Positions 2,908 to 57,300 of a stretch of 64,000 nt of DNA are shown piece after piece. The stretch's first letter is position 1; every line of letters begins with the position of its first letter. The notes under the pieces are model-generated. The model was not told the origin of the DNA. It did not search any database and saw only the letters and a program-made list of their open reading frames with translations. A program made the position numbers and the translations under genes. Source of the stretch: an uncultured Halobacteriales archaeon (GTDB lineage Archaea; Thermoplasmatota; E2; JACPAO01; JAHFTW01); NCBI GenBank assembly GCA_964643795.1, contig CAZXUC010000003.1, positions 13,549 through 77,548 of the forward strand, written 5' to 3'.

Positions 2908-2980
2908 TCGCAGAGGAGCGAGGATGATGGAGCCAGCGCGCACCGGCCCAACCGTCAACGCCCCCGCGTCAACCAACCGA

Positions 2981-3050
2981 CCGACCGGGGATTACGGAGA
3001 TTTCGGGGACACTCGGTCACATCCCGTTCCGCGAAATCCGCTGCCCGGGG
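2981..3050. repeat. W-type short repeat (CCGACCGGGGATTACGGAGATTTCGGGGACACTCGGTCACA...)
   Basis: Second copy at 7191-7275 (CCGACCGGGGGTTACGGAGATTTCGGGGAGACTGGGTCACA...). Confidence 0.65.
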
Positions 3051-3114
3051 TCGAACGGGCGTCCGGGTCGGGTGGCGCCAAACGCCCTTTGAACCATGGC
3101 CATGTTGGGTCGCC

Positions 3115-5736: not shown

Positions 5737-6526
5737 CTGGGAAGTGAGCCTGCAACCATCCGAGCAAGGCGGCGTTGAACTCATCGGCGCGCTCCATCGG
5801 GACCAGGTGGGCCGCCTTCGCGATGACCTCAATCTTTGCCCCGGTGATGCCGTCGGCCATCACCTGTGCTGCTTCCCGCGGAGTTACCTTATCCTCCTCC
5901 CCCACCACGACGAGCGTAGGGCATGCGATGTGGGGTAATCCGGGTCGGCGGTCCTTGCGGTCGCGCAGTGCGGCTAACGCGGCTAGCACGGATTTCTTCG
6001 GTTGCCGCATCATCATGGTGCGCACTTCGTCGGCAAGTAGTGCCCGCTGCGTCCGCGTTTGCGCCGTGAGCAGGTTGGGCAGCATCGCCTGTGCCACGAC
6101 GCGGACGCCGTAGACGCGAACGTCTGCAATGGTCGCATCGCGCTTGGCGCGGGCCTCCTCCGAGTCAGGCTCCGACCGCGTGTCGCACAAGACGAGGCCC
6201 TGCAGTTTATCTGGCGAGGACGCTGCAAGGGCGAGGGCCACGTAGCCGCCCATGCTGAAGCCGACGACGATGCACTTGGCGATTCGGAGATGGCCAAGCA
6301 GCGTCTGCACGCGCAGCGCCATGGCGTCGATGGATTCCTCCGGTTCATCGCCGGCGAGTGGCGCGCCGCCATGGCCGAACCCCGGCAGGTCGATGGCCAC
6401 GACGCGGTAGCCGGCACCCGTCAATGGCCCGAGTTGCATCCTCCACATGAGGCGGTCCAGGGGGAAGCCATGCAGCAGGACGACGGTGGGGCCGTCGCGG
6501 GGGCCCAGGACCGCGTGGGACAGCAT
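5726..6526 (-). CDS. Alpha/beta-fold hydrolase (3-oxoadipate enol-lactonase-like)
   Basis: MLSHAVLGPRDGPTVVLLHGFPLD, nucleophile elbow GFSMGG. The longer ORF to 6787 reads into an AT-rich promoter and a repeat. Confidence 0.8.
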   Translation of the reverse strand: MLSHAVLGPRDGPTVVLLHGFPLDRLMWRMQLGPLTGAGYRVVAIDLPGFGHGGAPLAGDEPEESIDAMALRVQTLLGHLRIAKCIVVGFSMGGYVALALAASSPDKLQGLVLCDTRSEPDSEEARAKRDATIADVRVYGVRVVAQAMLPNLLTAQTRTQRALLADEVRTMMMRQPKKSVLAALAALRDRKDRRPGLPHIACPTLVVVGEEDKVTPREAAQVMADGITGAKIEVIAKAAHLVPMERADEFNAALLGWLQAHFPVKS

Positions 6527-6686
6527 CGCGGGCCGATACGGGAGGGGGGACTTGAAGGGATGCGGTGCCTCGCGTGCGCCGCAAGCCAATAAAACTAGCA
6601 AACCCCAACCACAGACGACGCCCACCCCGGCGGCGGACTGCGGTTCGGATTCTAACGCGGTTCGGGGGTAGCATCCTGCGTACTCA

Positions 6687-7309
6687 CCTTTTCCGCAGAT
6701 TGCGCAGATTACGCAGAACGTTGCAGTCGCCTCGTGCCGGTGCAATCTGCGACCGGTCCCGACCATGCCAGCAATGCGGCGAGCCAATGGCGCGCCACGT
6801 TCGAATCAGTCTTCGACGGGCCCCGACTTCCGCCGGCGACGTGGGCGAGGCGATGAACCAGAAACGTCAAGTCAATGCTCGCGGCGATGCGCGCCGCCCA
6901 CACGCGTAGGCCGCGGAACCACGCGGAACGCCGTGGGCCTCGGCGTTTTCCGCGCGCTCCGCGTGAAGAAAGGGAGGCAGGGGAGTCCACACAAACCAGG
7001 GATAAGAAATGGTCCTCGTGGCAGGGCCGAGGTCGAGATTCTGTGAAAATCCGTGCAATCCCAAGCCTCCCACACTACGGCCGCGGCGTCAACCGGGAAC
7101 CCGTGAACGACGCCCCTGCCGTCGGCGGACTGCGGTAAGTCATGTGACAGCGGTTCTGAACACGAGCGACCTCGCCAGTCTAGCGACCATCCGACCGGGG
7201 GTTACGGAGATTTCGGGGAGACTGGGTCACAGTCAGTTCCCCGTAATTCTCGGAATCCTCGGTAGGGCGTGGGGGTCGTTCTGCGTAATCGTCGAAATCT
7301 GCGGAAAGG
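6687..7309. repeat. Composite non-coding element, copy A (modules Q-mid-S-P(98 bp)-T-W-Q'), bounded by 31-32 bp terminal inverted repeats
   Basis: Left end CCTTTTCCGCAGATTGCGCAGATTACGCAGAA (6687-6718). Reverse complement of the right end (7279-7309) is CCTTTCCGCAGATTTCGACGATTACGCAGAA. The interior is homologous to 37383-37793 and, inverted, to 31759-32130. Confidence 0.8.
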
Positions 7310-7320
7310 ACGAAGAGGCG

Positions 7321-8124
7321 TTAGCCGAACTTCGGCGTCCGCTTCTGCACGAAGGCCGTCGTGCCTTCCGCGAAATCCTTGGTGCCCGCCGCCGCTGCGA
7401 TGAGGCCGCGTTCAGCGTCCAATTGGGCAGCAAAGTCGTTGGCCAGTGTGGTCTCGAGCAGGCGCTTCGTCGATTCCCTGCTCATGGCGGCCCAGCTCCC
7501 CCACTTGCGCGCCACCTCGACAGCCCGCGCGACGAGCTGCCCGGCTGGTACGATTTCATCAAGCAGGCCGATGCGGTGGGCATCGTCGGCGGCGATGACT
7601 TCGTTGCCGAAGAAAAAGCGCCGCGTGCGTTGCTCGCCGATGAGTCGCGGCAGAAGCCACGTTGACCCGCCGTCCGGGCTGAGGCCGATGCCGAAATACC
7701 CGGCGGCAAAGCGCGCGTCCGGGCTACCGATGCGAGCGTCGGCGACGAGTGCAAGTCCCAGACCGCCTCCCGCAGCGGCGCCATTGACGGCTGCGACGAC
7801 GGGTTTGGCGCTGGCATGAAGTTCGAGCAGCAATGGGTGGAGTTCCGCCGTCGTATCGAGCACCCATTGCGTCGCGTGGCCTTGCGCGGCGGCCTGCTGC
7901 ATCTCCTTGACGTTCGCGCCGGCGCAGAACGCCTTGCCTGCGCCCGTGAGCACGATGGCGCGCACGCGTGCGTCCTCGAGAAGGCCGATGATCGTATGCC
8001 GGATGTGCCACATCGTCTTCGGGTCCAGGGAGTTCATTGTCTCGGCTTGCGCAAAGGTGACGACCGCGACGCCTCCGCCCTCGTGGCGGACGTGGACCAG
8101 TTCGGCTTTGAGCGTGGCAGGCAT
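7321..8124 (-). CDS. Enoyl-CoA hydratase/isomerase
   Basis: VAVVTFAQAETMNSLD, GAGKAFCAGANV, VNGAAAGGGLGLAL. Confidence 0.85.
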   Translation of the reverse strand: MPATLKAELVHVRHEGGGVAVVTFAQAETMNSLDPKTMWHIRHTIIGLLEDARVRAIVLTGAGKAFCAGANVKEMQQAAAQGHATQWVLDTTAELHPLLLELHASAKPVVAAVNGAAAGGGLGLALVADARIGSPDARFAAGYFGIGLSPDGGSTWLLPRLIGEQRTRRFFFGNEVIAADDAHRIGLLDEIVPAGQLVARAVEVARKWGSWAAMSRESTKRLLETTLANDFAAQLDAERGLIAAAAGTKDFAEGTTAFVQKRTPKFG

Positions 8125-8206
8125 GGCGCGCGCATTCTCGGGTCGGGTGTAAGAGCCTGCCTAGGATGTGCGCACGGTTTGCCAACATCGCCAAACGACG
8201 CCCATT

Positions 8207-8539
8207 TCACGGCTCGCAATGGCGCATGAGCCCAGCCAGGCAGTGGTCGACGAACTCGTCTGATGCCTGGCCAACCTTGCTGCCGAGGCGTTGTACTGCA
8301 ATGGTGCGGACCTGCCCCAGCTTCACCCACGACGGCTTGGCCACGACCCCTGGCGGAACGAGCGCTGATAGGGGAAAACCCAGGCGCTGCGGTGCCGTCG
8401 TCATGGGGAACGAGATGACCGTTCCTGAGCGGGAGTTGAAGTGCCCGTTGCTCGCGACGAGCACCGGTCGGCGGCCCGCCTGCTCGTGACCGAGGGTCGG
8501 CTCCAGGTCCGCCCAGTGAATGCTTCCTCGTTCGATCAT
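8207..8539 (-). CDS. mazF: MazF/PemK-family toxin (mRNA interferase)
   Basis: 110 aa. RGSIHWADLEPTLGHEQAGRRPVLV...SFPMTT...VKLGQVRTI matches the PemK pattern. 4-nt overlap with the upstream antitoxin. Confidence 0.85.
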   Translation of the reverse strand: MIERGSIHWADLEPTLGHEQAGRRPVLVASNGHFNSRSGTVISFPMTTAPQRLGFPLSALVPPGVVAKPSWVKLGQVRTIAVQRLGSKVGQASDEFVDHCLAGLMRHCEP

Positions 8540-8775
8540 CCGAACACTTCACCCTTGAAGCGCTCCTCGGCGAAGGCCACTTCCTCGACCGGGTCGAGCT
8601 GGGCCAGCATTGCAAGGTATTCGGCGTCCCGCTTCGCCTTCGCCTGCCGGGTCGCCTGATTCCGTAGCGCGGCCTCGATGGCGGCGCTCCGGCTCGCGAA
8701 CTCGTGCTTCTTGACGCGGGCATCCAAGGCCTTCACAAGGGAGGAATCCAGGCTGACGGCGACCTTCGTCTTCAT
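8536..8775 (-). CDS. Ribbon-helix-helix (CopG/MazE-like) antitoxin
   Basis: MKTKVAVSLDSSLVKALDARVKK...SRSAAIEAAL fits an RHH fold. ATG 8775 chosen inside ORF 8536-8850. Confidence 0.75.
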   Translation of the reverse strand: MKTKVAVSLDSSLVKALDARVKKHEFASRSAAIEAALRNQATRQAKAKRDAEYLAMLAQLDPVEEVAFAEERFKGEVFG

Positions 8776-8806
8776 GGTATGACCATAGTATGACGCCTGG
8801 TATGAA
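8776..8806 (-). promoter_or_regulatory. Putative mazEF operator/promoter: three GTATGA repeats spaced 11-12 bp
   Basis: GTATGA at 8777-8782, 8788-8793 and 8800-8805 (plus strand), directly upstream of the antitoxin ATG. Confidence 0.45.
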
Positions 8807-8862
8807 GGTTGTGGACGGGCCTTGGCCTGTCGGTGACCAATCTGGACCACCCGGACTCGAGC

Positions 8863-10257
8863 CTAGCCGAGGTTTACGTTGACGTTCTTGACGCGGGTGT
8901 AGAAGCCCATTGCGTCTTTCCCTTGCTCGGCGCCGATGCCGGATTTCTTCCAGCCAGTGAAGGGCGTCTGCGGGAACGTGACGGGGAACTCGTTGATGGA
9001 GACCATGCCGCACTCCAGGTCGCGAGCAATGCGGTGGGCCGCGCCGAGGTTCTGCGTCCAAACGCCGTTTAGCAGGCCATAGTCGCAGTCGTTGGCGAGT
9101 TTCACCGCGTCGTCCGGCGTCGCAAAGGGCATGACGCTCAAGACTGGGCCAAAAATTTCCTCCCGCCACACGACGTGGCTGGACTCGACGCCGGTCAGGA
9201 TGGTGGGTTCCACGAAAGCGCCAGCTGCGAGGGCTGGGTCGGCGGGGGCCTTCCCACCGAGAGCGACCTTGGCTCCCTGTTCGACGCCCTTCTCGACGTA
9301 ACCGAGCACCGTCTTTCGTTGTCCTTGGCTCACCATACTTCCGACGCGAACACCTTCTTGGGTTCCGGGTCCGACTTTCCACCCCTTCGCCTCCGCGGCG
9401 ACGGCTTCGACGAGTTTGTCGTGGATGGATTCGTGCACGATGAGGCGGGAACCGGCCCAACACATCTGGCCGGCGTTCATGAAAATCCCGAAGCAGATGC
9501 CCTTCGCCGCTTTCTTGAGGTCGGCGTCGGGGAGGACGACGTGGGCGCCCTTGCCTCCGAGCTCCAACGTGACGGGCGTGATGTTCTCCGCAGCCGCCTT
9601 CATGACCTGGACGCCGGTTGCAACCGAACCCGTGAGGCTGATTCCATCGATGCCCGGGTGTGAAGCGAGGCGGCCGCCGACCTCGCCACCTGGGCCGGTG
9701 AGGACTTGCAGGACGCCCTTGGGGAGTCCGGCTTCTTCGGCCAGTTTCGCCCACTGCAGGAGACTGAGCGGCGTTAGGCTTGCAGGTTTCGCGATGACCG
9801 TGCAGCCCGCGGCCAGCGCTGGCGCGATCGAACGCACGGCAAGTTGCAGGGGGAAGTTCCACGGCACAATGTGCCCCGTGACGCCAAGGGGTTGGCGCAG
9901 CGTGTAGCCGAGGCGGTCACCGGGAACGGGAATCGTAGAGCCCTCGAACTTGTCGCTCCAACCCGCGAAGTACTCTAGCGTCCACGCGGCGAAGCGGACG
10001 TCCCCTGTGGCCTCTTTGATGGTCTTGCCGTTGTTGCGTGACTCCGTGAGGGCTAGGTCCTGCGCGTGTTGATACGTGAGCGCCGCCATTTTTTGCAGGA
10101 TTCGGCCGCGCTGTGCTGGATCCATCATGCGCCATTCCTTCGATTCGAACGCCGCGCGCGAGGCCTCGACGGCTTTGTCGACGTCGTCGCGAGTGCCGCG
10201 CGGCACTTGCGCCAACACTTGGCCGGTCGCGGGGTCGTGGACGGATTCAGACTGCAT
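8863..10257 (-). CDS. NAD(P)+-dependent aldehyde dehydrogenase
   Basis: 464 aa. LELGGKG, FMNAGQMCWAGSR (catalytic Cys region), EEIFGPV. Confidence 0.9.
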   Translation of the reverse strand: MQSESVHDPATGQVLAQVPRGTRDDVDKAVEASRAAFESKEWRMMDPAQRGRILQKMAALTYQHAQDLALTESRNNGKTIKEATGDVRFAAWTLEYFAGWSDKFEGSTIPVPGDRLGYTLRQPLGVTGHIVPWNFPLQLAVRSIAPALAAGCTVIAKPASLTPLSLLQWAKLAEEAGLPKGVLQVLTGPGGEVGGRLASHPGIDGISLTGSVATGVQVMKAAAENITPVTLELGGKGAHVVLPDADLKKAAKGICFGIFMNAGQMCWAGSRLIVHESIHDKLVEAVAAEAKGWKVGPGTQEGVRVGSMVSQGQRKTVLGYVEKGVEQGAKVALGGKAPADPALAAGAFVEPTILTGVESSHVVWREEIFGPVLSVMPFATPDDAVKLANDCDYGLLNGVWTQNLGAAHRIARDLECGMVSINEFPVTFPQTPFTGWKKSGIGAEQGKDAMGFYTRVKNVNVNLG

Positions 10258-10330
10258 GCCCGCGGCTACATGGCGCTTGATGAAAAGCGTGCGGGGTCGC
10301 CACCGTGCCGGTCGAGGCTGCGCGACCCGC

Positions 10331-10340
10331 CTTTTTATCG
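10331..10340 (+). promoter_or_regulatory. TATA-like box (CTTTTTATCG) for proS
   Basis: Only AT-rich patch in the intergenic region. Centre is about 29 nt upstream of ATG 10365. Confidence 0.45.
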
Positions 10341-10364
10341 GGGTTGGCCCTCGGCGCGCCTGCC

Positions 10365-11819
10365 ATGCCCGCCACAGCCGTTGCCAAGTCCAAGGACTTC
10401 ATGGAGTGGTACAATGAAATCGTCGAGGTCGCCGAACTGACGGACAAGCGGTACCCCATCAAGGGCATGAACATTTGGCGCCCGTACGGCCAGAAGATCA
10501 TGTCGCGCATCGACCAGTTCACGCGCGACGAGATGGAGCGGACGCACCATGACGAAGTCTCCTTTCCGCTCATGATTCCGGAGAAGTTGTTCATGAAGGA
10601 GTCGGACCAGATCAAAGGTTTCGGTGCCGAGGTGTTCTGGGTCACGCACGCCGGCGATAATAAGTTGCCCGACAACGAGCGCTGGGTCGTCCGCCCCACG
10701 TCGGAGTGCGCGATGTACGAGATCTTCCCGTTGTGGATTCGGTCGCACAGTGACCTCCCGCTCATGACGTACCAGATCTGCAACGTATTCCGTTACGAGA
10801 CGAAGCAGACGCGCGCCTTCATGCGAGTGCGGGAGATTCATTTCTTCGAGGACCACTCCGTCTTCGCCGACGAGAAGTCCGCCCGCGAACACGTCGCCCT
10901 CGACCTCGACATCGTGCGCAATGTGTACGCCAAGATCGCCCTGCCGGCACTCTACTCGAAGCGGCCAGATTGGGACAAGTTCCCCGGCGCCGTCGACTCC
11001 ACGGGGGCCGACGTCATTATGCCTAGCGGACGCACGCTGCAATGCGCGACTGTGCACTACTACGGCACGAACTTCGCGCAGGCGTACGACATGAAGTTTG
11101 AATCGGAGACGGAAGGCCACAAGCTCTGCCACCAGACGACGTATGGAATGTCCGAACGCCTCGTCGGAGCCGTCGTCGGTTGCCACGGCGATGACAACGG
11201 ACTCATCATGCCGCCCCAGATTGCTCCCATCCAAGTCGTCATCGTGCCCGTGCTCTTCAAGGACGGAAGCGAGCCGGTCCTCGCGCAGTGCAAGGAGGTC
11301 GCTGAGCGGCTGAAGAAGGCGGGCTTCCGCGTCGAATTCGATACGCGCGCCAAGACGTCAGGCGAGAAGTACTACCACTGGGAAGTCCGAGGCGTCCCGC
11401 TTCGCCTAGAGATTGGACCGAAGGATGTCGAGAAGAAGTCCGTCTTCGCTGCCCGGCGCGACATGGGCAAGGAAGGCAAGAAGCCCATCGCCCTAGTGGA
11501 CTTGGAGCAGGGCGTCACGGACACTTTGGCGTCAATCCACACGGCTCTGCTGGAGCGACAACTCGCCTTCGTCAAGACCCGCATCAAGCACCCGAAGACC
11601 CTGGACGAGGCAAAGACCTTGGACCAGGAAGGCCAGAAGTCGGGCACGGGATTCATCCTCGCCATGGCCATCTGCTCCGACACGTGCGCCGCGCAGGTGG
11701 AGAAGGGCCTCGATATCAAGACGCTTGGAGTCCCCGTCGATGAACAGTTCCCGGCGGCACCATGCGGCGTCTGCGGCAAGCAGGCAAAGGACACGCTGCG
11801 GTTCGCGCGCACGTACTAA
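10365..11819 (+). CDS. proS: Prolyl-tRNA synthetase, archaeal/eukaryal type
   Basis: SKDFMEWYNEIVEVAELTDKRYPIKGM..., class II motifs (FRYE, VREIHF), C-terminal zinc-binding-like ...APCGVCGK...Y. Confidence 0.92.
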   Translation: MPATAVAKSKDFMEWYNEIVEVAELTDKRYPIKGMNIWRPYGQKIMSRIDQFTRDEMERTHHDEVSFPLMIPEKLFMKESDQIKGFGAEVFWVTHAGDNKLPDNERWVVRPTSECAMYEIFPLWIRSHSDLPLMTYQICNVFRYETKQTRAFMRVREIHFFEDHSVFADEKSAREHVALDLDIVRNVYAKIALPALYSKRPDWDKFPGAVDSTGADVIMPSGRTLQCATVHYYGTNFAQAYDMKFESETEGHKLCHQTTYGMSERLVGAVVGCHGDDNGLIMPPQIAPIQVVIVPVLFKDGSEPVLAQCKEVAERLKKAGFRVEFDTRAKTSGEKYYHWEVRGVPLRLEIGPKDVEKKSVFAARRDMGKEGKKPIALVDLEQGVTDTLASIHTALLERQLAFVKTRIKHPKTLDEAKTLDQEGQKSGTGFILAMAICSDTCAAQVEKGLDIKTLGVPVDEQFPAAPCGVCGKQAKDTLRFARTY

Positions 11820-11826
11820 CCATACT

Positions 11827-11891
11827 AACCACGAATTTCACGAAGGCCCACGAAACGGACCGTTTCGTGCCAATTCGTGAAATTCGTGGTT
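11827..11891. repeat. R-type hairpin (AACCACGAATTTCACGAA ... TTCGTGAAATTCGTGGTT) just after the proS stop; possible terminator or stabiliser
   Basis: Arms of about 32 nt, near-perfect complementarity. The same AACCACGAATT word is arrayed at 57177-57300. Confidence 0.8.
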
Positions 11892-11918
11892 CCGTAGTGG
11901 TTCATCGCGTCGCGGCCG

Positions 11919-12071
11919 TCAGCGCTTCTTGCCGACCTTCCCATCGTCCTTCTTCTCGACGCCTAACGGCTTGGACATCTTTGCCAATTCCTTCAGCAGC
12001 GCCATCTTGTCGGCGGCTGCCTTGTCGTTGTCGGCTCGCTTCACGTCGACCTTCTCGGGACCGGGGGCCAT
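11919..12071 (-). CDS. Small Lys-rich protein (50 aa), unknown function
   Basis: Own translation: MAPGPEKVDVKRADNDKAAADKMALLKELAKMSKPLGVEKKDDGKVGKKR*. High third-position GC. BRE/TATA-like CGAAAAGCCCTTGAGG centred about 26 nt upstream. Below the ORF-track length cutoff. Confidence 0.45.
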   Translation of the reverse strand: MAPGPEKVDVKRADNDKAAADKMALLKELAKMSKPLGVEKKDDGKVGKKR

Positions 12072-12091
12072 GGCTGCGATTCCACGGCCTT

Positions 12092-12107
12092 CCTCAAGGG
12101 CTTTTCG
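12092..12107 (-). promoter_or_regulatory. BRE/TATA-like motif (minus strand CGAAAAGCCCTTGAGG)
   Basis: Resembles CGAAAACCCTTATC upstream of the transporter gene at 40392-40405. Spacing fits a leaderless start at 12071. Confidence 0.4.
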
Positions 12108-12199
12108 CTCCCGGTTGGCCGGGGGTACGGCACTCGTCGATTCGTGACGCCACCGGCCGACGGCGAAGCAATCAAGAGGACCAGCCCGTTGCCGACATC

Positions 12200-12445
12200 A
12201 TGGCAGTCAATGTGCTCGGCATCGTGTTCTTGGCAATCGGTTTCCTCGCTGGCATGATTGGCCTCGGCCTCATGTACTTCTCCGTCGAGGACGAAGGGCG
12301 AAACCAAGACGGATGGTTCTTCAGCGACGCCGAACGCACCGACGAGAACATCCAACGCCACGAGGCGGGCCGCATCGTGTTCATAGGCGGCATCATCACG
12401 GCCACCGTCGGCGCGATTCTTGCGGCCGTCGGGCGTCCCGATTAG
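12200..12445 (+). CDS. Small two-TM membrane protein with acidic loop
   Basis: MAVNVLGIVFLAIGFLAGMIGLGLMYF-SVEDEGRNQDGWFFSDAERTDENIQ-...FIGGIITATVGAILAAVG. ATG 12200 chosen inside ORF 11762-12445. Confidence 0.5.
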   Translation: MAVNVLGIVFLAIGFLAGMIGLGLMYFSVEDEGRNQDGWFFSDAERTDENIQRHEAGRIVFIGGIITATVGAILAAVGRPD

Positions 12446-12569
12446 AGTCGAACGCATTTGCCAGCTGACGAACCCTAGCGCCGCTGACCAGTACTACCCT
12501 TGATTCTACGGGGCAGACCACCCCAACAACCACCCAAATCCTCATCTGGCCGCGCACCACCTCGCTGGC

Positions 12570-14417
12570 ATGAAGGTCTTCCTGGCCTCCGTCCTGCTGC
12601 TCAGCATCACGGCGGGGTGCCTATCCAGCAACGGGTCCCGTGATGACGATGTGGCCCCTGACTATCCGGCATGCGTCCACCCGTATCCATGCGGCAACGA
12701 GTGGCCCGCTGGATTGGCTGGGCCTTTTGCATACGACGGCCCCACATCAGTCGAGGTCGCGAGCCACGATGGCGTCATGCTGCGCGGGTGGCTGTTCACA
12801 CCTACGCTGCCCGATGGACTCGGCGCTCCGACGATTATCACCTCGACGCCCTACGTCGGCCTGAACACCAATCCGCCCGGCGCGCAGGAGGGCGGCTTCG
12901 GCTTGTTGGCGCGCTGGGTCGAGGCCGGCTACGCTGTCCTTGCGATGAGTGTGCGCGGCACGGGCGTTTCGGACGGCTGCTTCGAGAACAAGGGGGCGAC
13001 GGAGCAAGCGGACCAAGCATTCCTCGTCGAATGGGCGGCGGCGCAACCCTGGTCCAATGGCCGCGTGGCCATGGCTGGAACTTCGTATCCCGGTACGACG
13101 CCATTCATGGCCGCCATCCAGCAGCCACCCCACCTCGTCGCCATTATGACAAATGGTCCCGTCACTGACCCCTATACTGAGTTGCATACGCCGCAAGGTG
13201 CCTCGTACACGATGGGCGGGGCCTACGAGGCGGGCCGACGGGCGATTGTTACGTTCGCGCAAGCGAATGCCCAGACCACAGAAGGCCTGCCTAACGCCGT
13301 GGCGACCACGATGGAACGACTCTGCCCGGAACTTGCGACGGTCCTGCTGGGTGCGCAGAGGGGCCACTTCACGGACGACCGAAACGGCGCGTTCTGGCGC
13401 GAGAGGCAAATCATCTACGGCTTCCCCAACATCACGGCCGCCGTCTTCATTTCGCATGGCTTGCAGGAGACGGCACATCCCTTCCAGGAAGACATTGCAT
13501 GGGAGGCGCTTCGGCTGGCGCCGAAGCGGATGCTGCTTGGCCAATGGGACCACGAGTACCCCCGCGTCGAGGATTGGCAGGGCGTCATGATGCAGTGGCT
13601 CGACTTCTGGTTGAAGGGACTCGGCACGCCCGCCGACGCCGGCGTCGGACTCGTCCAGTATGAAGACAACACGGGCGGTTGGCACAATTCGACGACTTGG
13701 CCGCCGGCGGAGTCGGAACACAATGCACTCGTGTTGCAACAGAAATTCATGTGGGGCCTACCGCACGCGGGGAACGAGTCCCGCTCGTTTGTCCCAGCGC
13801 CGCCACTTCCGCGCGCCACCACGGGAGCCCCCCGGGAGTACCTGTGCGAGGCCCCACTCTCCACTGCTGGCGGCATTGAACAACCGGTGCGGGCACTTGT
13901 CTTCAAGACCCCGCAAATGCCTGGGGACGTGACGTTGGCTGCCGGCAATCCGTACGTGGTGCTGGAGATGCGAAGCGACCAGCCGAGTGGCCTCTTTTCA
14001 GTCCACCTCTATCGGCTGCGGCCTGGAGAGGCTTGTGCTGATTCGCGCTTACTGACGTTCGGTTCCGTGGACCTGCGATTCCATGCGGGCAACCTACAAG
14101 GAACGGACTTTCCTACGGACGCGACGCAGACCGTGCGCGTTGACCTCAACAACATGGCCGAGGTCCTGCAACCCGACGACGGGCTTGGGCTCGTCCTCAG
14201 CTACGGCGACACAATCTCTGCGGACGAAGTCGCCAACCCACTCGGGGACGACAGGTTCAGCCGCAGCGGCCAACCGGCCTCCCCCACGCTCACCATCGAC
14301 ACAGGGTTCACCGCCACTAATTGGTCCGCCTTGGGGCTCCCGGTCGTTTTTGGCGGAGTGGCGTACATGGGTGGCCCCCTCTTCGACGAAACTGAGCGGC
14401 CGTTCACGCCGGCGTGA
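12570..14417 (+). CDS. Secreted lipoprotein, CocE/NonD-type (S15 X-Pro dipeptidyl-peptidase-like) hydrolase
   Basis: Lipobox LSITAGC; VRGTGVSDGCF; GRVAMAGTSYPG (GxSYxG nucleophile). Confidence 0.75.
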   Translation: MKVFLASVLLLSITAGCLSSNGSRDDDVAPDYPACVHPYPCGNEWPAGLAGPFAYDGPTSVEVASHDGVMLRGWLFTPTLPDGLGAPTIITSTPYVGLNTNPPGAQEGGFGLLARWVEAGYAVLAMSVRGTGVSDGCFENKGATEQADQAFLVEWAAAQPWSNGRVAMAGTSYPGTTPFMAAIQQPPHLVAIMTNGPVTDPYTELHTPQGASYTMGGAYEAGRRAIVTFAQANAQTTEGLPNAVATTMERLCPELATVLLGAQRGHFTDDRNGAFWRERQIIYGFPNITAAVFISHGLQETAHPFQEDIAWEALRLAPKRMLLGQWDHEYPRVEDWQGVMMQWLDFWLKGLGTPADAGVGLVQYEDNTGGWHNSTTWPPAESEHNALVLQQKFMWGLPHAGNESRSFVPAPPLPRATTGAPREYLCEAPLSTAGGIEQPVRALVFKTPQMPGDVTLAAGNPYVVLEMRSDQPSGLFSVHLYRLRPGEACADSRLLTFGSVDLRFHAGNLQGTDFPTDATQTVRVDLNNMAEVLQPDDGLGLVLSYGDTISADEVANPLGDDRFSRSGQPASPTLTIDTGFTATNWSALGLPVVFGGVAYMGGPLFDETERPFTPA

Positions 14418-14446
14418 CCGTGGCCTCTCCTCGTCGCCGGGCGTTT

Positions 14447-14737
14447 GGAGGCCTGGGATTGCACAGATATCCACAGAACGTGACCTCGCGCCGTGCCGCG
14501 TAGCCCGGTCCGCCGATTTCGCCGCTGACGCCGAACACGGTCGTCCCGCCATCGGCGAAATAGGCGTCATCGGCGGATTGGAGGTCGTTTTCGGCTGGAG
14601 AGGCCGAACGAGGCAGCGAATCTGTGAGGCTCTGTGAAATCCCAGGCCGCCCACACTACGGCCGACGATCTCGTAAAGCCGCCGCAACCTGCTTCAACCG
14701 CAAACCGTAGACGACGCCGCCGGCGGACTGCGGTAAG
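14447..14737. repeat. P/T-type element with a different internal core (CCGCCGATTTCGCCG ... CGGCGAAAT... hairpin)
   Basis: GGAGGCCTGGGATTGCACAGA ... TCTGTGAAATCCCAGGCCGCC, then T tail CACACTACGGCC...GGCGGACTGCGGTAAG. Confidence 0.75.
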
Positions 14738-14763
14738 CCAAGTGAAAGGGGCTTCGAAGGCGG

Positions 14764-15492
14764 TCAACCAATCGAATTCCCAACCAGGATGAACCGGCCA
14801 TCCCGCCGCGTCTGGGCGTGCGAGAAGACCAGCCCCTTCAATTTGCCCGTGCGTTCCAGGTGCGTTCCATCGCAGGGATAGGCGCACACGCCGTCGATGC
14901 GCACGGCTTCGAGGACCTCAGGCCCGGGGAACGCGTCGGGTGGATCGAAGTTCTGCGGCGTGAGGACCTTCGCTGCGGAACCACGGGGCCAATGTTCCCT
15001 GGTCACAGGGAAGTCCTGCGCCGCCCACTGCAGGACGCGCTTGCGCACCGCGGCAAGTATGTCGGGAGTGACGGCGCGTTGCAGTTCAAAGCGGAACTGG
15101 CCGCCGCCCTTGACTTCCGGGTCGGCGACCAGCGGCGGAGCCTTCGCCTGAGCGAGCGCCGCCAAGGCGAGGTGCATTGCCGTGTGGCCGCGACTTGCCG
15201 CATCGCGCCGCTCGCGGTCGAGTTGGCATTGCGCGGTCTCCCCGACGTCCGGCCGAGTGCCTCGCAGTTCGTGCCAGAGCATGCCGTCGCGCTCGAAGCT
15301 GCGCATCATACGGCGCTTCTCGCCGCCGACCCACACCGTGCCCTGGTCCTGCGGCTGACTGTGCCGATATGTTCGACTCGTCGGCGCGAACAGCGAGCGG
15401 TCAACGGCGAAGGCGCGCCCGCGGACGGCAATCACCTTTGCCAGCGCAGTCGAGCGCCGTAGCTCCGTCAACCACAGCCGCTCGGTGCCCAC
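14764..15492 (-). CDS. AlaX-like tRNA editing protein (Thr/Ala-tRNA synthetase second additional domain)
   Basis: HTAMHLALAAL (HxxxH) and CAYPCDGTHL (CxxxH) zinc motifs. 242 aa. Confidence 0.75.
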   Translation of the reverse strand: MGTERLWLTELRRSTALAKVIAVRGRAFAVDRSLFAPTSRTYRHSQPQDQGTVWVGGEKRRMMRSFERDGMLWHELRGTRPDVGETAQCQLDRERRDAASRGHTAMHLALAALAQAKAPPLVADPEVKGGGQFRFELQRAVTPDILAAVRKRVLQWAAQDFPVTREHWPRGSAAKVLTPQNFDPPDAFPGPEVLEAVRIDGVCAYPCDGTHLERTGKLKGLVFSHAQTRRDGRFILVGNSIG

Positions 15493-21752: not shown

Positions 21753-21920
21753 CCGTCCAGCTGGCGGGCCTCTCGCCTGCATGCACGTGAGCCCCACATG
21801 CGTATCAACGCAAAACCCAGGCATCGCTTCGCCTCGAAATATAAGCCGGTCGGGAAATGCTGATGTGTATGTGTTTGTGTGTCGGTTTTGGAGTCGGTGG
21901 TCGATTCCGGAGACACCAAC

Positions 21921-22625
21921 ATGAAAGCACAAGCAATCTGCGCAGCGGTCCTTGCCGTTTTGGCCATCGCAACGCCTGCCGAAGCCTCCCTTGAGTCCTG
22001 CGATCTGGTCGAGGTCAAGTACGTAGAAGGCGCTTGCATCGCAACGCCTGCCGAAGCCTCCCTTGAGTCCTGCGAGGACATCTTTAAGGCCCAGGGCCGG
22101 TTAGAGCTCGGGTTGGGCCTCGGTGGGGGCGCCAAGGAAGTTAACTGCACGTTCGATCATCTTCCCATCATCGGACCGATTACCGGAGATCCGACGGCTG
22201 ACAACGCCAACGTCAACGCGCACGCCAGCGGATACGACGAGTGCACCAGGGACAAGTACACTCTCACCTATGAAGGGGGGGAGCACTCGTGGTACAAGAT
22301 CTACTTCCAGGTCACCGCGTGGAGCGGGGTCCAGTGGGACAGTGAGGGCTTCGTGGACTGGTCGATGAGCGGCGAGCTCTATGGAGACTTTAGTGGCCGG
22401 TATGCCTCCGCCGAATCGCAGTACTACGAAGAAGGCAAGAGTTACGTGGACGGCGTGGCCGACTCCTATACGTACTTTGAGGAGTCCTGGACCCCCATGA
22501 CGGTGCATGTCGGATCCAGCGCGAGCGTCGACGCGCATGCCAGTGTGGTGAGCAAGATCTCGAGCCGAGATGTTGCAGGCTTCTACGCGTCCTATGAGTG
22601 CACCAAGCAGACCGCTTCATCCTAG
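21921..22625 (+). CDS. Secreted aromatic-rich protein, unknown function
   Basis: Signal peptide MKAQAICAAVLAVLAIATPAEA. Contains an in-frame 72-bp duplication. Confidence 0.5.
   Translation: MKAQAICAAVLAVLAIATPAEASLESCDLVEVKYVEGACIATPAEASLESCEDIFKAQGRLELGLGLGGGAKEVNCTFDHLPIIGPITGDPTADNANVNAHASGYDECTRDKYTLTYEGGEHSWYKIYFQVTAWSGVQWDSEGFVDWSMSGELYGDFSGRYASAESQYYEEGKSYVDGVADSYTYFEESWTPMTVHVGSSASVDAHASVVSKISSRDVAGFYASYECTKQTASS
21965..22075 (+). repeat. Perfect 39-bp direct repeat, period 72 bp (in frame), inside the CDS
   Basis: CATCGCAACGCCTGCCGAAGCCTCCCTTGAGTCCTGCGA at 21965-22003 and 22037-22075. Duplicates the peptide IATPAEASLESC. Confidence 0.9.
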
Positions 22626-31704: not shown

Positions 31705-31758
31705 GTGTCGCGTCCGCCAACGCCGCAATTCCAGCGTTCTCGAATCTGGCACACATGG

Positions 31759-32130
31759 CTTACCGCAGTCCGCCGACGGCGTCGTCCACGGGTTCCACGT
31801 TGACACCGCGGCCGTGGTGTGGGAGGCCTGGGATTGCACGGATTTCCACAGAATCTTGACCTCGACCCTGCCACGAGGACCATATCGTATCCCTGGTTTC
31901 TGTGAAATCCCAGGCCTCCCTTTCTTCGGCCGGTGTGAATACGGCGCGCGGCGACGCCAGCACCGTCAAGGCGGTTGGAGTTCGCGCGGCCATCGACGTC
32001 GCCGGCGGAAGTCGGGTCCCGTCGAAGACTGATACGAACGCGGCGCGCCCGTGGACGACAGATTGCTTGCGTGACCGGGACCCGTCGAAGATTGTACCGG
32101 CACGTTGCGGCTGCATCCCGCCCCACTTTC
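31759..32130. repeat. Composite non-coding element, copy B (inverted: T-P(98 bp)-mid)
   Basis: CTTACCGCAGTCCGCCGAC...GGAGGCCTGGGATTGCACGGA...TGTGAAATCCCAGGCCTCC, then a mid region whose reverse complement aligns to 6740-6900 and 37450-37630. Confidence 0.8.
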
Positions 32131-33533: not shown

Positions 33534-33677
33534 GCAGGTCTCCTACGAAATCCGCATTGGTCATGTAACAGAGGAAACGGATAGTCCTGTCGGTGATGCC
33601 ATGGGCCCGCCCTGCGAAAATCGTGATGGCGCCGCCTTATGAGGCTGCGAAGCCCGACGGCCCTCGGCAGCCCGACG

Positions 33678-37370: not shown

Positions 37371-37382
37371 GCCCACCTTTTC

Positions 37383-37793
37383 CGCAGATTTCGTGCACCA
37401 CCTTTTCCGCAGATTACGCAGATTTCGCAGAGCGCTGCGGTCACCGCGTGCCTGTGCAATCTGCGACCGGTCCCGATGCTTCGAGCAATGCGGTAATCCA
37501 AGGGCGCGCCGCGGCCGTAGCCATCTGCGAGTGGACCCGCCAAACTCCGACGACGTCGGCGGGCACGTGAGGAACCAACCTTGACTCGATGATGGCGGCG
37601 CCGCGCGCCGCAGTCACACCCATCGAAGAAAGGGAGGCCTGGGATTTCACAGAAACCAGGGATGCAAAATGGTCCTCGTGGCAGGGTCGAGGTCAAGATT
37701 CTGTGGAAATCTGTGCAATCCCAGGCCTCCCACACCACGGCCGCGGTGTCAACGTGGAACCCGTGGACGACGCCGTCGGCCGACTGCGGTAAG
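37383..37793. repeat. Composite non-coding element, copy C (Q-Q-mid-P(98 bp)-T)
   Basis: CACCTTTTCCGCAGATTTCG...CACCTTTTCCGCAGATTACGCAGATTTCGCAGA; GGAGGCCTGGGATTTCACAGA...TGTGCAATCCCAGGCCTCC (37633-37730); tail ...GGCCGACTGCGGTAAG. Confidence 0.8.
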
Positions 37794-37837
37794 CCATGTG
37801 GCCGGTGGCTTCGAAAACGAGTGACGGCGCGAGGTGC

Positions 37838-41783: not shown

Positions 41784-41867
41784 GCGGGGGTAGCCAAGCC
41801 CGGCCAACGGCGCCCGACTTAAGATCGGGTTCTTCGTGATTCGTCGGTTCAAATCCGACCCTCCGCA
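41784..41867 (+). tRNA. tRNA-Leu (TAA), class II with long variable region
   Basis: Acceptor GCGGGGG/CCTCCGC, anticodon arm CCCGA-CTTAAGA-TCGGG, T arm GTCGG-TTCAAAT-CCGAC, discriminator A. The variable arm pairs poorly. Confidence 0.8.
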
Positions 41868-41899
41868 TTTTCACTTCGCTTCAATCGCGCAGCAGAACT

Positions 41900-42162
41900 G
41901 GAGGCCTGGGATTGCACAGATTCCTACAGATTCTGGTCCTCAATGGGTTCGCCCCTTCACGCGGAGGTCGCGGAACCCCGCGGAATCGCTTCCGCGACTT
42001 CCCGGTTCTCCGCGTGAAGTGTAGTGCGTTGCGTGCAAGAACACAATCTGTGAATTTCCGTGAAATCCCAAGCCTCCCACACTCCGGCCGACAGTCTCGC
42101 GATTCAAATCGTGCATCAACCGCAAACCGTGCACCACGCCCCCGTCGGCGGACTGCGGTAAG
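41900..42162. repeat. P-type long-hairpin element (41900-42077) plus long-form T tail (to 42162)
   Basis: Roughly 85-90% identical by eye to 1866-2043. The tail ends ...CCCGTCGGCGGACTGCGGTAAG. Confidence 0.8.
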
Positions 42163-42236
42163 CTCCCGACCCGGGGCTTCTAACAGGGCACCGTCGTGCA
42201 AGCACAAATGAGGGAATTACCCCTCGGCGGGTCATC

Positions 42237-42875: not shown

Positions 42876-43029
42876 ACGCGCCGCGCTGACCGTGCCAGAG
42901 TACATGGCAAGCGGGTCGCATTGTCCACGATGCACTGCCGCGTTCAACCCGGCGTGCCGCTCGCATTGGCCACTCTACTTCGAACCGCCGTATTGATGGA
43001 CGCCGTCGTCGGCATCGAGGTCCAAGCAA

Positions 43030-43108
43030 CATCGGTGGTCATCGGTGACATCGGTGGATGGGTGGCGCGCAACGCACCGATCCACCGATGCCACTGATTT
43101 CACCGATG
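43030..43108. repeat. U-type word hairpin (CATCGGTG x3 ... CACCGAT x3) in a convergent intergenic region
   Basis: ACATCGGTGGTCATCGGTGACATCGGTGG...CACCGATCCACCGATGCCACTGATTTCACCGATG, read directly. Confidence 0.75.
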
Positions 43109-44520: not shown

Positions 44521-44590
44521 ACGCGGAACGCACGGAACCGCGCGGAAAACGGCAGGACGGTTCGTTCCGCGGGTTCCGCGGGTTCCGCGT
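44521..44590. repeat. S-type word hairpin (CGCGGAAC words / GTTCCGCG words)
   Basis: ACGCGGAACGCACGGAACCGCGCGGAA ... TTCCGCGGGTTCCGCGGGTTCCGCGT. Confidence 0.75.
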
Positions 44591-44647
44591 GTAAGTCCTT
44601 GGGCGGAAGCGGCTCCTTGTTCCTATCGCCGGCGTAGTGGGCGACGC

Positions 44648-54245: not shown

Positions 54246-54493
54246 AGTCGCAGAACTCACAGAACCCGCAGAAGCGGTGCTGTGCTTTCTGCGACCGGTC
54301 GTTCCGCGGGATTCCGCGGCCTCCGCGTGACGAGGGCAGGCTCGCCGACAAACGTCGGGCCGGCCAAGCCGGACATTGCTGGTGCGCTTCGAAGGGAACG
54401 GCGCGGTTTCCGCAGATTTCGCAGATACCACAGATGACGAGTGGCAGCCACGCGGCTGTCCAGTTCTGCGAAATCTGCGGCATCTGCGGAAAA
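54246..54493. repeat. Composite of shared modules, ending in an 87-bp Q-type hairpin (54407-54493)
   Basis: TTTCCGCAGATTTCGCAGATACCACAGATG ... TTCTGCGAAATCTGCGGCATCTGCGGAAAAG. The upstream part shares ...TCTGCGACCGGTC... and, inverted, TCACGCGGAGGCCGCGGAATCCCGCGGAAC with other copies. Confidence 0.75.
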
Positions 54494-54538
54494 GTTGGGA
54501 AGGACCGCGCCGCAGCAGCGACCTTGGAGACGTCTCGA

Positions 54539-57176: not shown

Positions 57177-57300
57177 AACCACGAATTGCAGCGTCTCCGG
57201 AACCACGAATTGCACCGGAACCACGAATTTCACGAAACCGCGTTTCGTGCGGTTCGTGCAATTCGTGGTTAGGCCCGTGCGCGTGAGGGAATTCGTGGTT
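57177..57300. repeat. R-type array: AACCACGAATT x3 (direct) then AATTCGTGGTT x2 (inverted), with a central hairpin
   Basis: Word copies start at 57177, 57201 and 57219; inverted copies at 57260 and 57290. Fills the convergent gap before the pelota stop. Confidence 0.8.

Follow-up and report, generated by a model that had tools for sequence, protein, structure and literature searches.

Nested Foldback Repeats, Probably Non-autonomous Selfish DNA, in an Uncultured Thermoplasmatota Archaeon

The SMR-A repeats of Haloquadratum walsbyi (HqIRS42, HqIRS43, and HqIRS55) are described, in the section of PMC3119063 that deals with them, as elements of about 110 bp with prominent inverted terminal repeats and no target duplication. 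The same section reports no transposase with matching ends, terms their mobilization "enigmatic," and records that they insert into the palindromes of other mobile elements, giving rise to "MGE conglomerates" (MGE, mobile genetic element; PMC3119063). Here we describe comparable composite repeats in a 64,000-nt stretch (64.3% G+C) of contig CAZXUC010000003.1, hereafter the window, to which copy counts refer unless another genome is named. Three regions, copies A, B, and C, are probably conglomerates of small, transposase-free foldback repeats, that is, non-autonomous selfish DNA of the uncultured Thermoplasmatota archaeon that carries them.

Composite repeats and their modules

Copy A (6685-7307, forward strand), copy B (37372-37835, forward strand), and copy C (31735-32130, reverse strand) had been singled out in an earlier sequence-only reading, whose quoted sequence strings were all found in the window, as regions aligning over several hundred base pairs. 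Blastn within the window bears this out: A matches B over 498 nt at 70.3% identity (E 8e-74) and C over 425 nt at 72.7% identity (E 2e-66), and B matches C over 368-388 nt at 82-83% identity (E 2e-96 to 3e-97), including an inverted core of 214 nt that is 94% identical (31752-31965 vs 37587-37800). Every copy is intergenic, again as first read, and lies between Pfam-supported genes: alpha/beta hydrolase and enoyl-CoA hydratase genes flank A, fatty-acid desaturase and phosphoribosyltransferase genes flank B, and FGGY kinase and class-III aminotransferase genes flank C.

The 31-bp inverted repeats proposed to bound copy A are present (6690-6720 and 7277-7307; 31 nt, 90% complementary). The corresponding Q arms of B are left-hand only, two in tandem, and C has none, so only A is framed. 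The claim that A carries an additional nested S hairpin and W repeat also holds: an S-type block of about 54 nt in A is a gap in B and C (columns 267-320 of the three-way alignment), and the W repeat matches 2959-3070. The composite resolves into six smaller modules.

Module Q: CCTTTTCCGCAGATTnCGCAGATTnCGCAGA
Module R: about 120 nt
Module S: a CGCGGAA-type hairpin
Module P: a long palindrome, GGGAGGCCTGGGATT...AATCCCAGGCCTCCCACAC
Module T: a tail, ..GACGACGCCGTCGGCGGACTGCGGTAAG..GGCTTCGAA
Module W: a repeat, at 7167-7278 and 2959-3070

P is regularly trailed by the conserved tail T, and the pair occurs six times in the window (in A, B, and C and at 1855-2110, 14436-14770, and 41889-42190), with a solo T-like piece besides; the three copies originally counted were thus too few for this part. 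The 14-nt P core (GTGTGGGAGGCCTGGGATT) has 12 matches in the window at two mismatches or fewer, against 0.68 expected, and the T core (GACGACGYCGTCGG(CG)GACTGCRG) has seven, against 0.45 expected. Minimal elements measure 98-111 nt for P, 88 nt for Q-Q, and about 68 nt for S. Divergence among the A, B, and C pairs is uneven, identities being 69-73% in R, 88-96% in P, and 82-92% in T. The features are as follows (z, folding relative to shuffled controls; where two values are given, for the two strands).

6615-6663, forward: solo T-like piece ..GACGACGCCCACCCCGGCGGCGGACTGCGGTTCGGATTCTAAC to the left of A, a direct repeat of 7107-7156 (76% over 50 nt) and a T-core match with two mismatches
6685-6721, forward: Q left arm of A, CACCTTTTCCGCAGATTGCGCAGATTACGCAGAAC, with three CGCAGAT/A units at a 9-bp period (array 6694-6718); 91% identical to the Q arm of B
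6722-6842, forward: R of A, two direct copies of ..TCTKCGACSGGNCCCGA.. closed by CGTGCCGG/CCGGCGACG; 70-73% identity to R of B and C; fold not significant (z 0.2)
6903-6965, no strand assigned: S hairpin in A, about 54-68 nt, with arrays at 6903-6927 and 6940-6963; resembles S at 1917-1990 and 41950-42019
6973-7075, forward: P of A, left arm degenerate; 88-90% identity to P of B and C; weak fold (z -2.0)
7076-7178, forward: T tail of A, ..GAACCCGTGAACGACGCCCCTGCCGTCGGCGGACTGCGGTAAG..GGTTCTGAAC, from direct repeats, alignment, and a T-core match
7167-7278, forward: W repeat with CGGGGTTACGGAGATTTCGGGGA array, among the three copies in A only; 72% identity over 116 nt to 2959-3070
7277-7307, reverse: Q right arm of A, forming the inverted repeat with the left arm
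37372-37434, forward: two tandem Q left arms of B, beginning 3 nt past the desaturase stop codon (array 37408-37432)
37436-37570, forward: R of B, from the alignment
37633-37737, forward: P of B, GGGAGGCCTGGGATTTCACAGA...TCTGTGCAATCCCAGGCCTCCCACAC; folds at -58.3 kcal/mol (z -6.6, and -5.5 on the reverse strand); identity to P of C 96%
37738-37835, forward: T tail of B, reaching the stop codon of the convergent phosphoribosyltransferase gene
31735-32130, reverse: copy C, with R 32115-31996, P 31917-31814, T 31813-31735, and no Q arm; W-like array at the R end; P folds at z -4.8 / -4.2
1855-2110, forward: copy D, a long-armed P with S nested in its loop, then a degenerate T; its S (1921-1992) folds at z -6.5
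2959-3070, forward: second copy of the W repeat (array 2986-3009)
14436-14770, forward: copy E, P with a CGCCGAT-type foldback in its loop (14511-14575), then T
41889-42190, forward: copy F, P with nested S, then T, directly 3' of tRNA-Leu; 88% identical to copy D over 201 nt
54246-54498, no strand assigned: related cluster of a CAGAAC array (54246-54275), a half S (54300-54347), and a minimal Q-Q foldback (54405-54492; z -5.6 / -6.9)

Open reading frames (ORFs) read through these regions, and the sequence-only reading had taken them for repeats and not genes. Our analysis agrees: no frame shows a synonymous excess across A, B, and C, the pattern that would have spoken for a conserved coding frame; the 118-amino acid sense ORF through the composite has no match among 5.8 billion proteins; and the 206-amino acid antisense ORF matches, among 1.84 billion representatives, only an 82-amino acid ORF that is another P-T copy. 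A frame ending at a TAA in T is open in all three copies, but substitutions are mostly nonsynonymous whichever frame is read, and a protein-coding reading was rejected; within the P-T block of 182 nt, B and C differ at eight sites, spread over all codon positions. The length of T mimics coding constraint and fits triplet slippage instead. Its core holds a tract of 12, 15, 18, or 21 nt according to the copy, always a multiple of 3 (7107-7130, 14705-14730, 37761-37785, 42130-42152, 6615-6640, and loci of the metagenome-assembled genome [MAG] S2_bin.54), and slippage accounts for this because the tract is (GNC)n and partly palindromic. At gathering score, Rfam identified only tRNAs across the window, and on 6500-7400 its best E-value was 0.25, far under the gathering score.

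Two Logan contigs from the same sample end inside these repeats, L001 (window 7121-14465) in T of A and in the P arm of E, and L056 in R of C (window position ~32004), which suggests that more near-identical copies lie elsewhere in the genome.

Phased palindromes and evidence of movement

DNA palindromes, each about 65-110 nt long, make up the basic units (P, Q-Q, S, and several more in the window). Hairpins are stable on both strands for P of B and C, for Q-Q, for S, and for an element at 11824-11894 (z from -4.2 to -9.0), and no shuffled sequence folds as well as these; T and R fold no better than shuffled controls (z -0.8 to +0.6). Each arm is built from about three short motifs at a 9-10 bp phase, of the form ..C-R-C-N-G-A-T/A or GGGATT.

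CGCAGAT: arms of Q
CGCGGAA: arms of S
CACGAAT: 11829-11888 and 57225-57275
CGCCGAT: 14511-14575
CACCGAT: 43029-43107
CACAGAT: inner arms of P
GGGGATT-like: W

Such triplet arrays number 31 in the window, against 3.1 in shuffled sequence; 22 of the 31 fall in the intergenic 13.6% of the window, mostly as inverted pairs, and the class is also present in related genomes. Within an element the outer 14 nt of the P arm are 94% complementary, and comparison between lineages gives 88% identity for them. Inner arms are specific to the lineage (46% identity between lineages), yet the phased ..GAT(T) pattern is kept. Arm mismatches in 23 compact P elements from all genomes show no strand bias (51 G.T vs 49 A.C), and hence no sign of selection for pairing in one transcribed strand; the palindromes are DNA-level ones.

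Other foldbacks follow the same pattern. A family with AACCACGAATTTCACGAAGGCCCACGAAA arms (three CACGAA units) is found at 11824-11894 and again at 57180-57300; its member behind the ProRS gene (11827-11891) is a near-perfect 65-nt palindrome with z -9.0, and the second copy (57225-57275) has solo half-sites near it. CACCGAT-type and CGCGGAA-type triplet foldbacks occupy further spacers (43029-43107 and 44522-44592), and the CACCGAT type recurs in Thermoplasmatota relatives that are free of P (contigs L057, 7916-7995; L058, 10099-10161; and L062, 4925-4985). Where a relative has PolX inserted in the gene order between aminotransferase and FGGY kinase, the spacer following the aminotransferase gene holds other phased arrays, namely GGGATTTCGGGAATCCCGGGGATTT in L058 (6348-6921) and CGCCGAT/CACCGAT types in L059 (5348-5615). 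Contig L028 carries two inverted 35-nt arrays (957-991 and 1808-1842), each of three GTTGCAT motifs at a 9-bp period, that are 94% identical.

Empty sites in related genomes, which the sequence-only reading had suggested looking for, exist for both B and C. The aminotransferase and FGGY kinase genes are a convergent pair whose flanking synteny is conserved in relatives; their spacer measures 449 bp with copy C in place and 48 bp in L057 (80% protein identity), and the two genes overlap in L061. Likewise, three relatives keep the FtsX-ABC-HxlR-desaturase/phosphoribosyltransferase-decarboxylase block in synteny. Between its desaturase and phosphoribosyltransferase genes the window has 467 bp, filled wholly by B; L063 has 79 bp there and L064 has 93 bp, both without arrays, and L062 has 77 bp, which hold a different, 70-bp CACCGAT foldback.

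The modular, nested build first suggested for copy A is supported by the three-way alignment, in which S appears in A alone. The P loops of D and F each hold an S, that of E holds a CGCCGAT foldback, S stands beside P in A, and in A the series R-S-P-T-W is enclosed by Q arms; such events are too few for statistics on a preference for palindromes. Once assembled, blocks appear to have been copied as units, because A and B share the Q|R and R|P|T junctions and C shares the latter; the order Q-R-P-T was copied in this way at least three times.

B and C stand inverted, T ends outward, around about 5.2-5.3 kb of housekeeping genes. Synteny with the relatives breaks within this segment at 33534-33677, between the aminotransferase gene and that for an FtsX-like permease; in relatives the aminotransferase gene adjoins MarC, and FtsX adjoins diphthamide synthase or DUF1905. 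A composite transposon bounded by B and C was rejected, the aminotransferase gene inside the segment keeping its ancestral convergent adjacency to the FGGY kinase gene outside it.

The window encodes archaeal markers (eRF1-like, NFACT, EMC6-arch, and Methyltrn_RNA_2), and its aminotransferase is 100% identical to a protein in Logan assemblies of SRR6868923, with relatives labelled Thermoplasmatota archaeon. An exact-pattern scan of 185,579 species genomes located the P end in the Thermoplasmatota MAGs S2_bin.54 (17 loci), S2_bin.14, and BP_738 and in the unclassified MAG ADI bin012; the other matches of that scan lie inside genes and look like chance. In a scan of JGI metagenomes, 3 of 21 matches were true relatives, on soil contigs with 69-71% G+C. 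A scan of viral contigs and blastn against plasmids and phages returned no relatives of the repeats. S2_bin.54 has at least ten copies of the T core, and its P arm and T stay paired despite different sequence between them; one of its loci carries archaeal SRP RNA and a thiolase 84% identical to that of the window. No P core was found in 74 kb from eight syntenic relatives, and the distribution of P is therefore patchy. Neither the archaeal nature of the host nor the sharing of the P and T cores with other genomes of Thermoplasmatota had been noticed in the sequence-only reading.

Several P elements neighbor RNA genes. In the window, tRNA-Leu (41784-41867) is followed directly by the element at 41889-42190; in BP_738 (L013, ~1850-1900), a P element lies beside what appears by eye to be a tRNA 3' end; and in S2_bin.54 (L030, 1212-1923) the archaeal SRP RNA gene stands between two outward-facing P arms. 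Apart from the repeats, a gene pair for a PemK-family toxin and an RHH antitoxin (8207-8850), flanked by the genes for enoyl-CoA hydratase and aldehyde dehydrogenase, is found about 0.9 kb away from A. Inside an ORF at 21879-22625 that has no Pfam match, a perfect 39-nt direct repeat (21965-22003 and 22037-22075, 72 nt apart) encodes a duplicated IATPAEASLESC peptide near the N-terminus.

Mechanism and competing explanations

If these are selfish repeats, foldback units would tend to land in or beside resident palindromes and so build up conglomerates, and the phased motifs may serve as a multi-site platform for a transposase or recombinase supplied in trans from elsewhere in the genome. Insertion would proceed without staggered cuts of the DDE type, because target-site duplications are lacking; a route directed by hairpins or single strands and favoring resident palindromes seems most likely, of the kind that IS200/IS605-type elements follow or that has been put forward for REP and for Haloquadratum SMR. 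P and T may be conserved above R through recognition constraint or through gene conversion between copies.

A number of observations weigh against a mobile origin, or at least against a simple form of it. None of the 23 compact P elements has a target-site duplication at any of eight boundary offsets, visual inspection around A, B, and C showed none, and no sharply defined element ends were found. Of the inverted-repeat-framed mobile element first envisaged, the inverted repeats of A and the empty B and C sites stand, and the version in which it is a cut-and-paste miniature inverted-repeat transposable element, or MITE, is not established, the target-site duplications that were to be looked for being missing both at A and at the compact P elements. 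No transposase, integrase, or HUH/TnpB gene was seen among the approximately 60 genes of the window, and in the other MAGs the 79 genes lying up to 2.5 kb from P arms included no gene family more than twice (among the top 25 of 107 families). Distant arms do not enclose an autonomous element: the L030 pair at 1890/5317 encloses genes for a metallophosphoesterase and a uracil-DNA glycosylase and no transposase, and the L028 arrays, 817 bp apart, bracket a putative aIF2-beta gene (by eye fused to a TRAM domain) and likewise no transposase. Such single arms mean that a simple model of a palindrome moving as a unit falls short. The genomes with empty sites stand at about 71-81% protein identity, so that the comparison is between species rather than strains, and deletion in the relatives could formally also have given the short sites; the spacers could not be aligned base by base. 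Finally, P and T exceed R in conservation about threefold, and the cores are likewise conserved across lineages, which would fit a host function too.

That last point leads to the alternative that survives best, although we regard it as unlikely: cis elements serving the host. They would be either binding or architectural sites, for instance for a topoisomerase, a nucleoid protein, or a chromatin protein (as in bacterial BIMEs), or hairpins at gene 3' ends that stabilize mRNA or insulate convergent genes, and recombination or gene conversion would have spread them secondarily. That the P and T cores are conserved between lineages with only about 78% DNA identity in their genes, and that P and T are conserved more than R within the window, accord with this; so do the A/T-containing motifs phased at 9-10 bp with dyad symmetry in GC-rich DNA, which would suit a symmetric multimeric DNA-binding protein, the location of most sites at gene 3' ends or between convergent genes, and the housekeeping gene flanked by single arms in L028. 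Against these stand the same gene junctions in syntenic relatives, which have no element or an unrelated one, and the patchiness of the P family among close relatives. The many motif families in one genome would call for many proteins or for very loose recognition, nesting disrupts the residents (S splits P loops, and the left P arm of A has decayed, z -2.0), and with six copies no rule of orientation relative to flanking genes can be demonstrated.

It is quite unlikely that the repeats derive from a larger transposon or integrative element, as its solo ends or as relics left by internal deletion, whether of IS200/IS605 type (PATE-like, P being one subterminal hairpin and T the other end) or with ends that carry several transposase-binding repeats. 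The P-T unit, a hairpin with a conserved tail, is indeed asymmetric and has no target-site duplications; S2_bin.54 still has P arm and T together although the sequence between them differs; archaeal PATEs arise in this way and are nested with other repeats, as the relevant section of PMC3119063 has it; and the outward T ends of the inverted B and C, 5.2 kb apart, could be read in the same sense. However, T has no significant hairpin (z -0.8 to +0.6), whereas both ends of IS605-type elements carry palindromes; neither a tnpA or tnpB gene nor a remnant of one was detected in the window, within the L030 arm pair, or among the top 25 families of P-arm neighbors; and the segment between B and C holds housekeeping genes, the adjacency of aminotransferase and FGGY kinase genes across C being ancestral.

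Comparably improbable in our estimation is a long-persisting repeat system spread across the Thermoplasmatota clade and served by one trans-acting protein that reads dyad-symmetric triplet arrays, which would make it an archaeal counterpart of REPIN-RAYT or a set of sites co-opted for chromosome architecture or chromatin positioning. It is left possible by a motif grammar shared across unrelated foldback families and by P and T cores that cross lineages. On the latter reading, a 30-bp arm would match the footprint of one histone dimer, and a 60-bp palindrome that of a tetramer.

Multi-copy genes for a structured noncoding RNA (P-T as a small RNA, guide-RNA scaffold, or ribozyme-like RNA) are very improbable, for while the P hairpin is very stable, P-T is the best conserved part, and on our reading five of the six copies in the window point the same way as a neighboring gene or tRNA, Rfam yields no family even with E-values of up to 10 allowed, the two strands fold about equally, G.U is not above A.C in the arms (51 vs 49), T and R fold no better than shuffles, P loops tolerate insertions of 60-120 nt, the left arm of copy A is decayed, and no AT-rich promoter-like box was seen by eye in A, B, or C. 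Tn7/Mu-like TG..CA ends (TGTGGG resembles the Tn7 terminus) were rejected, with neither a 5-bp duplication nor genes of that kind in support, as were archaeal origin (ORB) boxes and H/ACA RNA, whose copy number and anatomy do not fit and for which there was no Rfam match.

As selfish repeats, these elements would be a known kind of selfish DNA in an archaeal group where it was previously undescribed. The transposase-free small repeats of archaea are poorly catalogued, and the window offers a dense and diverse set, amounting, as estimated from coordinates, to about 3 kb or about one-third of its intergenic DNA. Three features make it useful: the phased-triplet grammar of the arms, the nesting, and two junctions that are empty or differently occupied in relatives. 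Its sequence signatures, GTGTGGGAGGCCTGGGATT for the P core and GACGACGYCGTCGG(CG)GACTGCRG for the T core, can be used to hunt for the mobilizing protein. On the practical side, such repeats break short-read contigs (L001 and L056) and yield long spurious ORFs in GC-rich MAGs.

Comparison with described repeat systems

Like bacterial REP/REPIN sequences and BIMEs, the window repeats are extragenic, palindromic, and multi-copy, with two conserved inverted arms around a variable spacer; as in those systems, they form mosaic clusters with other motifs, lack target-site duplications, and persist within lineages. Each REP forms a palindrome of 20-40 nt tagged with GTAG or CGTC, whereas the P arm GGGAGGCCTGGGATT is self-complementary only in AGGCCT. 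Membership in REP/REPIN was rejected on this arm structure and on the flanks of the P arm, CACAC(T/C)(A/C)CGG in the window and CACACG.. in S2_bin.54, which share no conserved tag. No gene resembling RAYT, the HUH tyrosine transposase that mobilizes REP, was seen in the window or among the P-arm neighbors examined, and REPINs have been stated never to have been detected in archaea.

Classical MITEs (Correia, ERIC/RU-1, and those derived from IS630) are also short, noncoding, intergenic, and multi-copy, with terminal inverted repeats and spurious read-through ORFs, and ERIC has variable internal insertions as well. The repeats here have terminal inverted repeats (Q arms of 31 nt at 90%, P arm cores at 94%) and are present or absent between species. 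Unlike MITEs, they have no target-site duplications, on which ground a classical MITE was rejected; no insertion sequence with matching ends was found in the window or among the top 25 families near P arms, and the minimal elements are palindromic over nearly their full length. The absence of target-site duplication is shared with PATEs. Derivation of that kind, from IS200-IS605, is nevertheless not supported: the T end is without a significant hairpin, P is itself a full inverted repeat, the composite ORFs match no protein family, and neither tnpA nor tnpB was seen in the window.

Arms made of short tandem sub-repeats recall the eukaryotic Foldback and Galileo elements, as an analogy of architecture only; in the part of PMC3688188 concerned, the Galileo sub-repeats are multiple binding sites for the THAP transposase (PMC3688188). 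Unlike the window repeats, Foldback and Galileo are eukaryotic and far larger, with target-site duplications and a known transposase.

From SMR-A the window repeats differ in host phylum (Thermoplasmatota vs Halobacteria), and their likeness to HqIRS is drawn from the published description. The arms of three motifs at a 9-10 bp phase are not reported for SMRs in the section of PMC3119063 that describes them, and there SMR mobility is drawn from strain-specific insertions (PMC3119063), whereas here it is drawn only from presence and absence between species. In the remaining respects the two agree: an archaeal host, inverted repeats, a minimal size of 98-111 nt (P), no coding capacity, no target duplication, and no matching transposase seen, together with, in the few cases observed, a position inside the palindromes of other repeats that yields nested conglomerates. 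By this analogy, the closest precedent is the SMR/PATE conglomerates of Haloquadratum walsbyi.

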